This document shows, one piece after another, positions 645 through 32,777 of a DNA stretch of 64,000 nucleotides. The position numbers were made by a program, and so were the translations under genes. Each line of letters opens with the position of its first letter. Within the stretch, counting starts at the first letter, position 1. The DNA is taken from the IMG/VR virus record IMGVR_UViG_3300025133_000044, positions 1 to 64,000 of that record, one strand, 5' to 3'. The notes below the pieces were generated by a model. That model did no database searches. It saw only the letters and a program-made list of their open reading frames with translations, and was not told the origin of the DNA. The stretch comes from a virus.

Positions 645-3446
645 CTATCCGTATAAAACTGCTTCGATTTCTTCTCGGATGATCTGCTCAAGCTTTGTCT
701 CCTCAAACAACTGGCTCAACTCTTCCACTGTCTCTATCTGATTAACCTTGTCCTTGATGGCCTTAAATCGTGTTTGATATGTAAACCGGAAGTCACTAAT
801 ATATCTTAATATAGTTTGTGGTTTTTTCGATGCAGCAATATCGATGATTAAATCGTCAATGAGGTGTCTTACGTCTTCCCACTTCTGCATGTCTTGAGCG
901 GATCGAGCGGGGCGGTCTGATTGTGATTGTTCCCGTAGTCTATCAATCTCGGCCAAAACTGTAGCGTGCATAACCTTAAGTTGCTCAAACATATTAGCTA
1001 GTTCTTCGTCGGCGGCAACGATTTGACCTGAGACTTTCTGATCTGCGGTCTGTAACACGCCATTTATGGCGTGACGTAACTGTTCAATATCTTTATCTAA
1101 ATACTGCACAAACTTAACTGCTGCCAACATAAGTTCGTCTGCCTGATCGTCGGGGAAACCTTCTGGTGCATCGTCTTCGAGCACAAAACGTAGGACAGTG
1201 ACCCTGGCTTTTCTGGGCTCGCCTACCTTCATCTCGCGTTCTTGATTATTGCCAACTATTGCAGATGTGTAGCGCAATCGCTCAAGTCCGAGCACAAAAC
1301 CATCAGCGATATACTCTCGGATTTCTTCAGGTTTTACAGCAGGATAATTCGCGTGAATCCTCCCTTCTTCCCCTTCTCTCAAGTCCATTTGAAGTTGTTT
1401 GTTTGTTTCCTGTGCGGCGCGAACAAAATATTTCGTTAGTTGATTCAGCACGTCAGTCTTAAACTTCGGGGAATAAAAACTATTGCCCACTCCTCTCAAA
1501 TCGCGAGTGTCACCATATGTAACACCTAGCACACCACGTATATCTCCTGTCGTTGGGCCAATGAGAAAAACTTCGTCTTCCATCGGGTATGTTAAATTAT
1601 AGCCACCCTCGTTGTCATAGGTAATCTCAAAATTATCAAACTCTATTTCTTTTGATTCAATTTGAGCGCGTAACTTATCTATTCTCGATGGCTTTGCAAA
1701 CCCTAGTTCGACTAGTTTAGCACGGAAAGCAGCAACATGTTTTTCATATTCTTCATCGTCGTTCCGCACTCCGTTACAAAACTCTTCAAACCCAGTAGGA
1801 CTTGGATCGATATATCCTATTTCAAACTCAACTCTGAATTCTACTTCACCAACACTATTTTCTTGTATGTCATAGTCAGCAATTTCATTGCTGAAGTTCA
1901 TGTTGCCCATGACGTCTCTTGCGATGGCATGCTTGTCTGACCAGTTCATCGGAAACTCATCTGCGTCGGGACCGTCCAAATCAACTTCTAGAGTCATGCT
2001 ACCATCCATTCTGACCTGTGGTTCGTTCTCTTCGCCCTCGTAAGGATCGGTGTCATTGTCCCACTCTTCCCACTCTCGATTTACAATCTGGTAGCTGACG
2101 TGGGAATGGTCTAGGCTGAGATTCCTTTCAGTGTAATCGCAGCGATATTCATAATCTTCTGCCATTTCGATCAATTCTTGTGGTCGTTGATTTCCACGAA
2201 CCTGCTCTATCTCTTCAGACTCGTCGCCTTCCCAATCTCCACCAGACGCCCATTGGAAAGATTCTTTGCCATCATATTCCGCAAAAAGCCTACCAAACAT
2301 ATCACGAGGTTGGGTATCCCTATAGTGGCCACCTTTCATAACAAAATCACGTAAATAATCTGCGCTGATCTTACCATCTTCACCAATGGCTTCTTCCCAT
2401 TTATCTTTCTGGGTCTCCAAAGCCCACTCTCTTACTTTCTCGTAGAAACCAGGTATATCAGTGCCATAGGTGCTCCGTTCTGGAACTGCTAAATCATACT
2501 GATTGCCAGAAAAACTTTGGTACTTCTTCTTGAATCTGCGGACTCGGACGCGACCAACGGGCTCAATACCAGGCACGCTCCTTTCATCGTCTTCAAAAAT
2601 CTCGTCCTCTTGAAGGTCGTCAACTTCTTGCAGATCTTGCGTCTCAACAATAAAAGCCAGGATTTCACCTTCCTTTGCTGATTTCAGGGCGCAATATTCA
2701 AACTCTCCGCCTTCGCGGCGAGCGCCTTCGAGAGAATGACATGACTCGATGAGGTCAAAATCTGACATACGCAGGATGTCCATTGGACGGCGTGTAATAA
2801 TAATTGAATAGTCTGTCATCATTTTGTCAGGATTTTCGCGATAATACCTTGACTCTTTATTCCAAAACTCTACCCACTCTTCTAGGTAATTACCATAAGC
2901 CTGGTGTCTAAAGTGTTTCTCGTAATCGTCTTTAGCTTTGTTCTCTGCATTCTGTAGCACTTCATATTCTTTGGCCACATCCGGCTCCATCGCCGTGCTG
3001 CCGCGTTCTCTGTACCATTCGTTAGCAAATGTACCTCTTTTATCAGCTAGCTCTCTTATCTTCTTATTCATGCTAGCGGCGCGCTGCAAAACTTTACCAA
3101 TCTTCTGGTGCTTGACACGCATAACCTGTTCCGTTCCAGGTTTGCTGGGATCACCTGTGTAACTCATGAAGCCTTTTGACGCCAGGCCAGTTTTGAAATC
3201 TACTTCATAGCCTTGTTGTCCAAGCCAAGTTATAATCTTTTCAATTTTTGTGCCTTTCGTTATTGATTTGCCAAGGGGGACGATAGTTCGCCATTTACCT
3301 TTGAAGATGTCGTTGAAAGGCACTTCTTCAGGGCTCAAATGATCCGTTGCGTTCTCGATATATTCAGCGCGTTCGTAGGAAGCCATCTCCAAAAGAGCAT
3401 CCTTCCTGAAGTTTCTCCAATTCGCGAAAAGCTTTTGCATCTTCAT
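645..3446 (-). CDS. large hypothetical protein (933 aa), candidate head-packaged protein
   Basis: Long ORF; N-terminal MKMQKLFANWRNF...LLE leader shared with neighbour; C-terminal LEQIIREE motif; no confident catalytic family. Confidence 0.85.
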   Translation of the reverse strand: MKMQKLFANWRNFRKDALLEMASYERAEYIENATDHLSPEEVPFNDIFKGKWRTIVPLGKSITKGTKIEKIITWLGQQGYEVDFKTGLASKGFMSYTGDPSKPGTEQVMRVKHQKIGKVLQRAASMNKKIRELADKRGTFANEWYRERGSTAMEPDVAKEYEVLQNAENKAKDDYEKHFRHQAYGNYLEEWVEFWNKESRYYRENPDKMMTDYSIIITRRPMDILRMSDFDLIESCHSLEGARREGGEFEYCALKSAKEGEILAFIVETQDLQEVDDLQEDEIFEDDERSVPGIEPVGRVRVRRFKKKYQSFSGNQYDLAVPERSTYGTDIPGFYEKVREWALETQKDKWEEAIGEDGKISADYLRDFVMKGGHYRDTQPRDMFGRLFAEYDGKESFQWASGGDWEGDESEEIEQVRGNQRPQELIEMAEDYEYRCDYTERNLSLDHSHVSYQIVNREWEEWDNDTDPYEGEENEPQVRMDGSMTLEVDLDGPDADEFPMNWSDKHAIARDVMGNMNFSNEIADYDIQENSVGEVEFRVEFEIGYIDPSPTGFEEFCNGVRNDDEEYEKHVAAFRAKLVELGFAKPSRIDKLRAQIESKEIEFDNFEITYDNEGGYNLTYPMEDEVFLIGPTTGDIRGVLGVTYGDTRDLRGVGNSFYSPKFKTDVLNQLTKYFVRAAQETNKQLQMDLREGEEGRIHANYPAVKPEEIREYIADGFVLGLERLRYTSAIVGNNQEREMKVGEPRKARVTVLRFVLEDDAPEGFPDDQADELMLAAVKFVQYLDKDIEQLRHAINGVLQTADQKVSGQIVAADEELANMFEQLKVMHATVLAEIDRLREQSQSDRPARSAQDMQKWEDVRHLIDDLIIDIAASKKPQTILRYISDFRFTYQTRFKAIKDKVNQIETVEELSQLFEETKLEQIIREEIEAVLYG

Positions 3447-5134: not shown

Positions 5135-5815
5135 TCAGTCAGAGGAAACAACAAAACTTTGTAAAGACTTACGAGAAGGCGAAACAACAATATGATGAAA
5201 GCTTTTGTTGATTTGTGAAACAAGACCAATGATTTCACCAGAGATGTTAAGAATCGGTGCACCGGATGAGCCTGGATATGCGGGGATGGTAAAAACAGAT
5301 GTCAGGCTATCACCGCCGGCGAAATGTCCAGAAACAACAGGGGTTAGGCCCGGGCCGGACACACCATCGGGAGCCATCATGCTCCACACCACTTTGCCAC
5401 GCGAGGGGTTTCCAAACGCGATTGGTATCGGGTCAGCCAGCAGAGATCGATCAGTTTTCATCAGACAAATATCGCTTGAGGGGTGAATGTTCAATTCAAT
5501 TGCGGCATATGTATTTTCGTTGTCATCATGAATAGTTACAAGCACCTTATCAAGAACCTCAGATTGCGCTGCGTTATCAACCATCGCGCGAACTCCAGCA
5601 CATATGTGCCCAGCAGTTAAAACTTTGTTTGGGCCCACAACAGTTCCAGAGCCAAAACCAGTTTCTAATACGCAAGTAATACAGTTTGCTTTATAGCGTT
5701 TTACTTTAATTTGCACAAAAGAATCAAATGGAATATTTGGCTTTGTATCCACATACACACGGGTACATGAGCAAAAAATTGCTGCGCATAACAAAACCAA
5801 AAGTTTATTTTTCAT
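5135..5815 (-). CDS. trypsin-like (S1) serine protease, probably lipoprotein/secreted
   Basis: GSG..LTAGH (His), DICL (Asp), PGSSGAP (Ser); N-terminal MKNKLLVLLCAAIFCSC signal/lipobox. Confidence 0.88.
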   Translation of the reverse strand: MKNKLLVLLCAAIFCSCTRVYVDTKPNIPFDSFVQIKVKRYKANCITCVLETGFGSGTVVGPNKVLTAGHICAGVRAMVDNAAQSEVLDKVLVTIHDDNENTYAAIELNIHPSSDICLMKTDRSLLADPIPIAFGNPSRGKVVWSMMAPDGVSGPGLTPVVSGHFAGGDSLTSVFTIPAYPGSSGAPILNISGEIIGLVSQINKSFHHIVVSPSRKSLQSFVVSSD

Positions 5816-30531: not shown

Positions 30532-31635
30532 TTAATCAATATCATAAAATTCTTCTGCTTTCCCTTCCTTCTTATCAAAACGCATGATAATATCTTCATC
30601 CATGATTTGAAGGACTCGATTGCGGAATTTTTCGTTAGTTAGTTTATCTTTCCACTTAGCCGCTTGAAACTTTTCAGTTGTGCCATTTTCGTAAACTAGG
30701 TTATACCAAGCACCGCTTTGCTCTAGTGAGTCTGATCCCTTAATAGCTTCAAGCCAGCTCTCCTCGTCCTGGATACCGACTTCTCCGCCCCAAAGAATTT
30801 TAAATGTGCATTGTCTACCATCTGTACCAAATCGACTTTTCTTCAGTGTTACTTTAACTTCTGAACCAATTCTGTATCCATTTTCATCTTCGAGAAAAGA
30901 TGCTTTTGCCTTACGTCCTGTTAACCATATACGTAATGAATAGGCATAGTGCATTGCTTTGCCGCCAGGTGTGACGTAAGGTGTCGTCATTGCTTCTGCT
31001 GCAAATCTAGTAATGTTAGTTTTAAGCTGGTTCAGTACTAAAAAAGTAGATTGTGAGCCGGCGATAGGAACTGTCAACTTAGACATGCCTTTTGCTAAAA
31101 TTCTCGCTTTAACCGCCATTGAAGATTGGGGATTAAAATCTCCGTCGACGTCGCTAATAGAGGGCGTGAGAGCGAGAGAATCCCAAATAAATAACATCTT
31201 GTTTTCGTTAGAACCTAGCAACTCTTCAATAGTCTCTAGGACATATTCAACGCTAGGTGGCTGCATATATAATATATTATTTACATCACAGCCGGCGCTG
31301 GCTAAGAATCCAGGGTCAATTGCAGATTCAGCATCGAAGTATACGACATCAATTCCCATCTTTTGAGCATTCGCCGCAACTTGAGCTGCCATATAAGATT
31401 TACCAGAACCTTCTAGGCCGGCAATTTCAATAATTTTGCCCACTGGTATACCAGCTAGTTGGCCTCGACAGATGATACTGTCGAGCCATCGCGAGCCAGT
31501 TGGGATCCACTCTTTAACCTGTGTTGGGTTATCCTTCGTTAGATCGAAGGCAACCTCCATTCCCGCTTTTTTATTGACAAGATTTCTCATCTCATCAATA
31601 TTTAGTCGACCTAGTTTCTTTGCTTTCTTTGCCAC
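30532..31635 (-). CDS. recA: RecA/UvsX recombinase
   Basis: IPTGS..LD, GLEGSGKS, DAESA, WDSL, NQL, TPGGKA; likely GTG start at 31635 with GAGG SD. Confidence 0.95.
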   Translation of the reverse strand: MAKKAKKLGRLNIDEMRNLVNKKAGMEVAFDLTKDNPTQVKEWIPTGSRWLDSIICRGQLAGIPVGKIIEIAGLEGSGKSYMAAQVAANAQKMGIDVVYFDAESAIDPGFLASAGCDVNNILYMQPPSVEYVLETIEELLGSNENKMLFIWDSLALTPSISDVDGDFNPQSSMAVKARILAKGMSKLTVPIAGSQSTFLVLNQLKTNITRFAAEAMTTPYVTPGGKAMHYAYSLRIWLTGRKAKASFLEDENGYRIGSEVKVTLKKSRFGTDGRQCTFKILWGGEVGIQDEESWLEAIKGSDSLEQSGAWYNLVYENGTTEKFQAAKWKDKLTNEKFRNRVLQIMDEDIIMRFDKKEGKAEEFYDID

Positions 31636-31655
31636 GGTACCCTCGTTTTTAAAAA

Positions 31656-31688
31656 TTGAGGCCTCTGTAAACCCAGGCCTCCCTGCGG
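31656..31688 (-). ncRNA. structured RNA element, copy 1
   Basis: CCGCAGG-GAGGCCT-GGGTTTACAG-AGGCCTC-AA; 27/33 identical to copy 2, with compensatory changes. Confidence 0.7.
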
Positions 31689-31695
31689 CTATCAA

Positions 31696-31878
31696 TTAGG
31701 ACTTCGTCTGTACAAATTGATAAAGTTTCTCAGCTTCGCGGATGACATCTTCAGTTGTCGCGCCGCTCCACTGCTTTGTTTGCTCAAAACGCATATGCGC
31801 ATTTTGCTCACAAATGTCCTTAGCTAAGCCAAGTAAACCTTCGCGGATTTCATATCCACTTCTGTTATTTTCACTCAT
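31696..31878 (-). CDS. 60-aa hypothetical protein between the two repeat copies
   Basis: AGGAG SD after a (CA)n leader; GYEIR..LL.LAK...EDVI..AEKLY.FV. Confidence 0.8.
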   Translation of the reverse strand: MSENNRSGYEIREGLLGLAKDICEQNAHMRFEQTKQWSGATTEDVIREAEKLYQFVQTKS

Positions 31879-31903
31879 AATAAGCTCCTGTGTGTGTGAA
31901 AAG

Positions 31904-31936
31904 TTGAGACACCTGTAACCCCGTGCCTCCCTGCGG
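31904..31936 (-). ncRNA. structured RNA element, copy 2
   Basis: CCGCAGG-GAGGCAC-GGGGTTACAG-GTGTCTC-AA. Confidence 0.7.
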
Positions 31937-31943
31937 GGAAGGA

Positions 31944-32687
31944 CTAGTTTCCCAAAAGCTCTTTAAAGGCTTGGTCAACGGAACTCGTGCCTTTATTACT
32001 ATACCTTGACGATTCAGAAGAAACATCCTCAGCATCTTCCTCGCTTAGGAGGAATTCATCAAGCATTCCTTGAACCTGTTCTGGAGTCTTTCGTTCAAAA
32101 ACAGTACTGTAATCAGGCACCTGTTCAAGTAGAGATTGAATATCCTCTTCCTTTTCAACCAAAGGCGAATTGCGGCGCCGGGGAGTGATAGTCGTCTGTG
32201 GGAACTGGGCGCCGGCCGGCTTACCATAATTGATGACCAGATCAACTCCTTCGTTCACATCGGTGATATCACCGTATTCCGGGTTGAGAACAAGATTTAA
32301 TAGTTCTCTATAGGCCATTTTACCAAAGCCCCATAGTCGCACACCCTGATCTTCCTCGCCGCGTACAAGAACGGGACTAAAAAAGCGTTGCCGTGCTGAC
32401 AATGTCTTCGCCATCTTGATGGCGTCATCACTGCCATCCTTATAAAGTTGACGGATAAAGTCATCAAGAGGATCACTTTCTCCAAAGTTTTTCTTTGGGC
32501 TCAAGAATCCAGGGTTCTTACCTAGGTTATAGTGAAACCAGTATTGCTTAAACGGATCTCCGTCCGAAGTTGGCAAAATACGAATTGTTTGTTCACCGTC
32601 CTCTGGACGCCAGAAAACGCTCTTGCCTGCGCCATGATTTTCCAAGGCGTCGCGCTTTGCCTTCATTTTTTCTAAATCAATACCCAT
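31944..32687 (-). CDS. single-stranded DNA-binding protein (T4 gp32-like)
   Basis: FWRP..G...IRILP..PF...FHY, VRLWGFG, DITD..G.DL, acidic tail ending AFKELL. Confidence 0.85.
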   Translation of the reverse strand: MGIDLEKMKAKRDALENHGAGKSVFWRPEDGEQTIRILPTSDGDPFKQYWFHYNLGKNPGFLSPKKNFGESDPLDDFIRQLYKDGSDDAIKMAKTLSARQRFFSPVLVRGEEDQGVRLWGFGKMAYRELLNLVLNPEYGDITDVNEGVDLVINYGKPAGAQFPQTTITPRRRNSPLVEKEEDIQSLLEQVPDYSTVFERKTPEQVQGMLDEFLLSEEDAEDVSSESSRYSNKGTSSVDQAFKELLGN

Positions 32688-32777
32688 AGTCTTTCTCCTT
32701 TTTAGGTAAAGTATGATTAGCTAATATTCCAATCATCTAGTCTAGTATCATAATAACAACGTATAAAGAAAGGTAAA

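Follow-up and report, generated by a model that had tools for sequence, protein, structure and literature searches.

A covarying RNA pseudoknot in the ssb–recA interval of uncultured phages: a candidate gene-end module and cassette joint

Introduction

The gene 32 operator of phages T2, T4 and RB69 is an H-type pseudoknot linked to the gene of a gp32-type SSB and followed by an A/U-rich stretch (PMC3014915, PMC535899). The T4 operator occupies a site within the leader of its own gene, 67 nt ahead of the gene 32 start codon on the 5′ side (PMC3014915). The RNA element described here, found between the genes ssb and recA of a virus from the IMG/VR collection, is similar in fold, in gene partner and apparently in the composition of the following stretch, but is located after the ssb stop codon instead. 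The lengths of helices and loops of the T2 gene 32 pseudoknot also differ from those of the element.

PeSLs (promoter-early stem-loops) mediate modular shuffling in T4-type phages; like the element, they are short conserved motifs that border the variable genes interspersed among the core genes in T4-like genomes, and homology breaks there (PMC2839356, PMC4122927). A PeSL comprises a sigma-70 early (or Mot middle) promoter and a simple stem-loop, and many copies are present in hyperplastic regions (PMC2839356, PMC4122927). In contrast, the element is a pseudoknot with invariant loops, occurs in 0–4 copies per genome and is concentrated in the ssb-to-recA interval, and no conserved promoter hexamers were found in or beside the members of its family.

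Intrinsic terminators and 3′ stabiliser hairpins resemble the element in having a G+C-rich hairpin 5–9 nt past the stop codon, often with a U-run, in the same slot. The family differs from intrinsic terminators in its pseudoknotted 10-nt loop and near-invariant loop sequence, as well as in the U-run, which is short, offset by A-N and absent from about one third of the copies.

A catalogue of candidate structured RNAs, built on the same data source (IMG/VR) and devoted to the same kind of object, reports covarying intergenic motifs, including 12 upstream of GP32, 1241 terminator-like motifs and 8495 unnamed models, while its text names no motif downstream of GP32 (PMC10690425). The pseudoknot may already be among the unnamed models.

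Two copies of the element in the window

The window analyzed is a stretch of 64,000 nt, positions 1 to 64,000 of the IMG/VR record IMGVR_UViG_3300025133_000044. On its minus strand, the gene ssb ends in TAG and is followed by 7 nt, copy 1 of the element, and the SD and ATG of a 60-aa ORF; the TAA of this ORF is followed by 7 nt, copy 2, and the SD and GTG of recA (Table 1). The preliminary description of this stretch had reported two 33-nt direct repeats, identical at 27 of 33 positions, each located just past a stop codon. Gapless alignment returned the same repeats with the same six differences, namely, repeat 1 (31936..31904, minus strand), CCGCAGG-GAGGCAC-GGGGTTACAG-GTGTCTC-AA, and repeat 2 (31688..31656, minus strand), CCGCAGG-GAGGCCT-GGGTTTACAG-AGGCCTC-AA, and the stop codons were located at 31946..31944 (TAG of ssb) and 31698..31696 (TAA of the 60-aa ORF). 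The next start codon lies 22–27 nt beyond each repeat end, and the likeness of the two copies runs on into a tail of the form AAYTTTT.

Across the full IMG/VR record of 103.5 kb that contains the window, the 12-mer CCGCAGGGAGGC was found at exactly two sites. A search with the covariance model of the family, with filters switched off, assigned about 63 bits (E ~1e-14) to both copies, with the next match in the window at 11 bits. The earlier remark that the element has no U-tract was only partly right: a run of TTTT or TTTTT is present 2–3 nt past each stem. The terminator scan calls neither copy.

Folding of single copies yields a 7-bp hairpin of −12 to −13 kcal/mol with z-scores of −0.1 to −1.0, no better than shuffled sequence; the case for the structure therefore rests on comparison with relatives.

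Table 1. Features of the ssb–recA region, in coordinates of the window
Feature	Position	Strand	Basis or details
Pseudoknot copy 1	31906..31937	minus	model match, 63.0 bits
Copy 1, S1	C31937-C31936-C31935 with G31921-G31920-G31919, plus G31934.G31922	minus	pairing scheme of relatives
Copy 1, L1 (CAGG)	31933..31930	minus	
Copy 1, S2	31929..31923 with 31912..31906	minus	
Copy 1, L3 (TTACAG)	31918..31913	minus	
Tail of copy 1 (AACTTTT)	31899..31905	minus	short U-run, G-poor
Pseudoknot copy 2	31658..31689	minus	model match, 63.2 bits
Copy 2, S1 outer pair	G31689.U31671	minus	
Copy 2, S2 (GAGGCCT with AGGCCTC)		minus	
Tail of copy 2 (AATTTTT)	31651..31657	minus	
gp32-like SSB gene	31944..32687	minus	Pfam PF08804, E 4e-12; phrog_1192
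60-aa accessory ORF	31696..31878	minus	cassette between the two copies; no Pfam or PHROG match
RecA/UvsX-like recombinase gene	30532..31635	minus	GTG start 22 nt past copy 2; Pfam PF00154, E 2e-37
Sigma-70-like promoter, TTTACC-16-TATTAT with TG	32750..32777	minus	consensus scan only

The frame of recA, followed back through the pseudoknot, runs into the stop codon of the 60-aa ORF without another stop codon in between (window 31633–31698, minus strand; ORF 30532..31695). This is probably due to chance, since the corresponding spacers of the family fall in all three frames.

Secondary structure and covariation

The repeats are a 32-nt H-type RNA pseudoknot on the sense strand, as supported by covariation. 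In the preliminary description, a 7-bp stem kept by compensatory changes had been proposed together with a pseudoknot pair, C-G in copy 1 and G.U in copy 2. Both proposals were borne out in 120 and 76 distinct relatives, as well as by a mutual-information scan in which no structure was assumed. Standard pairs were found in 98.7–99.5% of cells, compared with 86–88% in shuffled sequences and 23–58% with the partners slid; in the motif-independent set alone, the corresponding values were 98.7%, 86% and 29–54%.

Double changes were found in six of the ten pairs, including four in the 7-bp helix S2. In the motif-independent set, pair 1 of S2 is represented by G-C or A-U, pair 2 by A-U or G-C, pair 6 by A-U or C-G and pair 7 by C-G or U-A, while the middle pair of S1 is C-G or G-C. 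Helix S1 is formed by N-C-C with G-G-N′, and its outer pair N-N′ takes all six standard types (AU, CG, UG, UA, GC and GU). Pair 4 of S2 is G-C in 63 of 120 sequences and G-U in the other 57; the fold accordingly belongs to the sense RNA, because the G-U pair would be an A-C mismatch on the opposite strand.

The top pairs of the mutual-information scan were exactly those proposed, with the addition of positions 6 and 18, represented by G.G in 87 sequences and by A.A in 12. This combination is likely a non-canonical fourth layer of S1, and the working model of this helix is N-C-C-R with R-G-G-N′. The hairpin loop of 10 nt is tied into the pseudoknot. L1, C-A-G-G, is practically invariant; S2 contains an invariant G-G-C core among its 7 bp, and L3 has the form N-N-A-Y-A-G, where both A and the G are invariant. 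The loop sequences are almost unchanged between phages with a divergence of about 25% in RecA. A looser IMG/VR pattern, in which any S2 was allowed, returned no new types of S2, and its 5′ strand always started with [G/A/T]AGGC.

Distribution of the family

At least 119 loci were found by an exact-pattern scan of IMG/VR, and 80 of more than 599 related loci were taken from a RecA-based search. The covariance model was built on 121 copies. In the gathered loci it produced 236 matches, corresponding to 195 distinct instances, so the total size of the family is at least 195. The preliminary description had proposed a search of phage metagenomes with a covariance model, and homologues with covariation in both helices were obtained. 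All 195 instances are on the coding strand, and in loci oriented by recA all are on the recA strand.

The number of copies per genome is 0–4; five relatives of 147–193 kb contain 0, 1, 1, 1 and 2 copies, and the record studied here contains two. A genome-wide promoter or terminator signal is ruled out by these numbers, with two copies in 103 kb and 0–2 in the relatives of 147–193 kb.

With the models of Rfam 15 at gathering scores, only three tRNAs were matched in the window, and at E values up to 10 no match was found on the element, in agreement with the earlier suggestion that it lies outside known RNA families. None of the GenBank phages searched carries the pseudoknot. A literature search with an 11-mer of the element found it only in unrelated eukaryotic papers. 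Bacterial origin was rejected by a search of 185,579 species genomes, in which most of the 120 matches listed were chance-like; three of these 120 had all seven pairs of S2 and the family loop (two in L239 and one in L286).

Genomic context and cassette boundaries

Between gp32-like ssb and recA lie 165 of the 195 instances (about 85–90% of copies), and of all 195, 103 are right after ssb and 44 right before recA, in a set of loci gathered by the motif or by RecA homology, where other contexts are under-sampled. The interval has the form of an array, ssb-pseudoknot-(accessory gene-pseudoknot)n-recA, represented by 84 single, 40 double, 9 triple and 1 quadruple arrangements. The last inserted gene, where it has no trailing pseudoknot, usually abuts recA within a few nucleotides; the constant partner of the element is therefore the 3′ end of ssb and not the 5′ end of recA. 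The spacer from the stop codon to the pseudoknot has a sharp peak at 6–9 nt and a floor of 5 nt, and the median distance from the end of the stem to the next start codon is 26 nt.

The cargo genes are unrelated to each other and encode FKBP isomerase, an Hc1-like protein, DUF7695, Dam methylase, an RNase H-like protein, lipoproteins and ORFans. In L146 (~3010–3090), a tRNA gene is the 'cassette' between the pseudoknot and recA. Homologues of the 60-aa ORF were found in the same slot of relatives, as the immediate upstream neighbour in 14 instances and as the immediate downstream neighbour in 14; they belong to a family of conserved proteins of 60–72 aa with the N-terminus MSE.N.SGYELR (window 31696–31878, minus strand). 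The 60-aa protein had been suggested as a binding partner of the element, but it cannot be the general one, since its family flanks only 14 of the 195 instances on either side.

Several instances were found in other surroundings. In L344 (6634–6674), the pseudoknot is located between the gene of a 409-aa protein of no assigned function and that of a ClpP-like head-maturation protease. In L203 (1501–1540), a variant with compensated S1 separates the gene of a MoxR-like AAA ATPase from the DUF2201/VWA gene that comes next, and in a complete genome the pseudoknot after the MoxR-like ATPase is 41 kb from ssb. In L164 (~5260–5290), and in the same form in L104, a sigma-54-type −24/−12 box, TGGCAC-N5-TTGCA, is present between the pseudoknot and a small gene, which is unusual in a T4-like phage.

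The stop codons preceding the 188 instances with an upstream ORF are TAA in 97 cases, TAG in 83 and TGA in 8, so that TGA is depleted compared with the long ORFs of this genome (40, 17 and 19, respectively). This depletion partly reflects shared ancestry of the ssb genes; the genes other than ssb upstream of the pseudoknot are also poor in TGA (TAA 37, TAG 27, TGA 6).

In pairs of contigs, 150 nt on one side of the pseudoknot show 97–100% identity and the other side is unrelated, with the switch at the edge of the element. The upstream sequence is the same and the downstream sequence different in L064/L087, L040/L071 and L080/L095, while the reverse was found in L050/L020. The FKBP cassette, flanked by pseudoknots, was found not only downstream of ssb but also, in the case of L148, upstream of this gene. 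A recombinogenic cassette boundary similar to PeSLs, one of the readings offered in the preliminary description, thus has direct support from the arrays, the varied cargo and the homology breakpoints at the pseudoknot.

Replacement by terminators and probable gene-end function

SSB-bearing relatives lacking the pseudoknot contain an ordinary G+C hairpin with a T-tract in the same slot, 5–10 nt from the stop codon. In L104 this terminator is GGGGGGCGAAAGCCCCCC followed by a T-tract, and similar hairpins are present in the slot of L148, L155, L156, L160, L161, L166, L171 and L176. On a quick midpoint-rooted SSB tree, in a sample enriched for carriers of the pseudoknot and with heuristic terminator calls, carriers of the pseudoknot are present to either side of the deepest split. 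Given the well-supported branches, the terminator label must have changed at least 8 times and the pseudoknot label at least 12 times.

A promoter after the pseudoknot is only occasional: in L055 and L148 the pseudoknot is followed by a sigma-70-like promoter and not by a start codon. In L148 (86–2790), the array comprises the gene of a 279-aa protein, pseudoknot, FKBP, pseudoknot, lipoprotein and pseudoknot, all upstream of the ssb promoter, and ssb itself ends in an ordinary terminator. The use of the terminator slot, the swaps on the tree, the copies followed by promoters and the copies away from ssb together point to a gene-end module and not to a leader operator.

On balance, the pseudoknot is somewhat better described than not as such a gene-end module, acting as an attenuator or 3′-end cap and serving in addition as a PeSL-like cassette joint. 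The structure, strand, position, replacement by terminators in relatives and breakpoints are established, and termination or protection of the 3′ end is the function proposed. In the proposed mechanism, the G+C-rich 7-bp hairpin S2, locked in a compact form by S1 and the invariant loops, would attenuate transcription and/or cap the 3′ end of the upstream message, and the cap could arise via partial termination or via cleavage in the U-rich tail. Either way, the outcome would be expression of ssb above that of the promoterless downstream genes. The near-identical sequence of about 40 nt, shared by co-circulating phages, would serve as a homologous crossover point for the gain, loss and swap of cassettes.

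The consensus scan found no promoter-like site between either copy in the window and the next start codon, and ssb, the 60-aa ORF and recA are probably a single transcription unit driven from the sigma-70-like promoter upstream of ssb (32777..32750). In such a unit, without an internal promoter, the pseudoknots could only attenuate transcription and not stop it.

The tail of the family is A in 85% of copies at +1, then N, then T in 55–73% at +3 to +7, and is nearly free of G. Intrinsic termination cannot apply to the whole family, because 60 of 193 copies (31%) lack any T-run of at least three nucleotides in the 12 nt past the stem. At a few loci (L048, L085 and L181/L197/L198), an ordinary terminator immediately precedes the pseudoknot, which would thus be redundant as a terminator there.

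Alternative explanations

A plain terminator would require neither a pseudoknot with a 10-nt loop nor the near-invariant loops, CAGG and A-Y-A-G, which suggests that the element has a specific partner or that its tertiary fold is unusually exacting. This leaves some room for the element to be a sequence-specific RNA device, a possibility that is to be regarded as tentative. It could be a factor-dependent switch of the SSB:RecA ratio, responding to SSB, another phage protein or a metabolite, or a bacterial-world counterpart of exonuclease-resistant RNAs, with a compact fold that would cap highly expressed phage messages at their 3′ ends.

The preliminary description had also proposed a translational operator of the SSB/RecA module. 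Free SSB would nucleate on the pseudoknot, spread along the G-poor A/U-rich leader and block the ribosome-binding site of recA or of the inserted gene. The order of pseudoknot, unstructured A/U-rich tract and SD resembles the T4 gene 32 operator (PMC3014915), the pseudoknot adjoins ssb, its invariant loops hint at a protein partner, and the last cassette without a following pseudoknot is usually tightly coupled to recA. Nevertheless, this reading is not supported by the comparison and appears unlikely: the pseudoknot is located 3′ of ssb and not in its leader, ordinary terminators stand in for it with at least 8 changes on the SSB tree, and, although in the family a G-poor A/U-rich tail and the median of 26 nt lead to the next start codon, some copies precede a promoter or tRNA gene. 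One array is located upstream of ssb, and other copies, after the MoxR-like ATPase and before the head protease, are far from any ssb. In addition, ssb has its own unrelated covarying leader hairpin.

This hairpin, with which the leader of the ssb mRNA begins just past the promoter-like site (window 32710–32738, minus strand), is represented by AGATGATTGG-loop-CTAATCAT, after which ACTNTA is invariant. Compensatory changes were found in eight of its ten pairs among 27 relatives, and it is unlike the pseudoknot. The candidate roles of this hairpin are those of an autoregulatory operator of gp32 type or a 5′ stabiliser, and it would be a more natural autoregulatory site than the pseudoknot; it is possibly among the 12 motifs upstream of GP32 in the IMG/VR catalogue (PMC10690425).

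Endonuclease processing, in which RNase E or a phage nuclease would cut the A-N-U-U-U tail, leaving the upstream message capped by the pseudoknot and releasing the downstream one with a short leader, is a rather improbable explanation. The tail, with A in 85% of copies at +1 and W, U and U at +3 to +5, fits the reported preference of RNase E, R-N-cut-W-U-U. An RNase E site is also present beside the stop codon of T4 gene 32 (PMC3014915). However, about one third of the tails are A/C-rich rather than U-rich, and a weak terminator fits the same tail. Processing overlaps with the gene-end explanation and is compatible with it.

If the element were a conditional terminator or a sensor similar to riboswitches, its invariant loops would form a pocket for a small ligand or for a phage or host factor tuning read-through into recA. 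The element is comparable in size and compactness to the smallest pseudoknot riboswitches, its unpaired positions are invariant, and in most copies a U-tail directly follows S2. Even so, a sensor is very improbable, given that the downstream genes (RecA, FKBP, Hc1-like, methylase, lipoproteins, ORFans) have no common function, that constitutive terminators are interchangeable with the pseudoknot, and that it resembles no Rfam riboswitch model at E values up to 10.

Least credible is an element without any role in the expression of flanking genes, namely, a DNA-level site for site-specific recombination, similar to attC, or a decoy RNA against host defence. The cassette arrays recall the gene-attC arrays of integrons, and pseudoknotted antitoxin RNAs and their phage mimics are known, but the presence of G-U and U-G pairs, like the pseudoknot itself, points to RNA, neither a recombinase nor a toxin gene stood out among the annotated flanking genes, and the copies are dispersed and not tandem, with fixed orientation and spacing from the stop codon. 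Antitoxin RNAs of type III (ToxI-like) are tandem head-to-tail pseudoknots beside the gene of an endoribonuclease toxin, whereas whole genes lie between the copies of the element, and the annotated neighbours showed no toxin family.

Several other candidates were rejected. An internal sigma-70 promoter does not agree with the absence of a −10 box at the right distance, with the next start codon about 26 nt away and with the compensatory changes and G-U pairs; an N4-type single-stranded-DNA hairpin promoter is at odds with the pseudoknot and with the abundance of wobble pairs. The spacer of 5–9 nt would suit a stimulator of read-through or frameshifting, but the spacers fall in all three frames, the in-frame extensions, besides being short, are unrelated to one another, and ordinary terminators of relatives share the spacing. 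Cleavage of RegB type at GGAG, as well as a hidden SD or standby site, was rejected because GGAG is not conserved (GAGGC is replaced by AAGGC or GGGGC, with compensation); a search for homologues of RegA and RegB was silent in the record, which is 57% complete, and equally in control genomes, and is hence uninformative.

Conclusions

The family of pseudoknots has no description in Rfam or in the literature searched and no carrier among the GenBank phages searched. Accordingly, a whole group of uncultured phages appears to use a signal that is missed by current annotation. The interchangeability of the slot with ordinary terminators points to a second way of making gene ends in phages, and a role as crossover joint would show how accessory genes are shuffled beside the core of replication and recombination genes. 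The unusually clean covariation in both helices of the 32-nt pseudoknot makes it well suited to structural and biochemical studies. If the element were a sequence-specific RNA device, in either of the two forms considered, it would represent a phage riboregulator of a new class, brought along by every cassette entering the locus.
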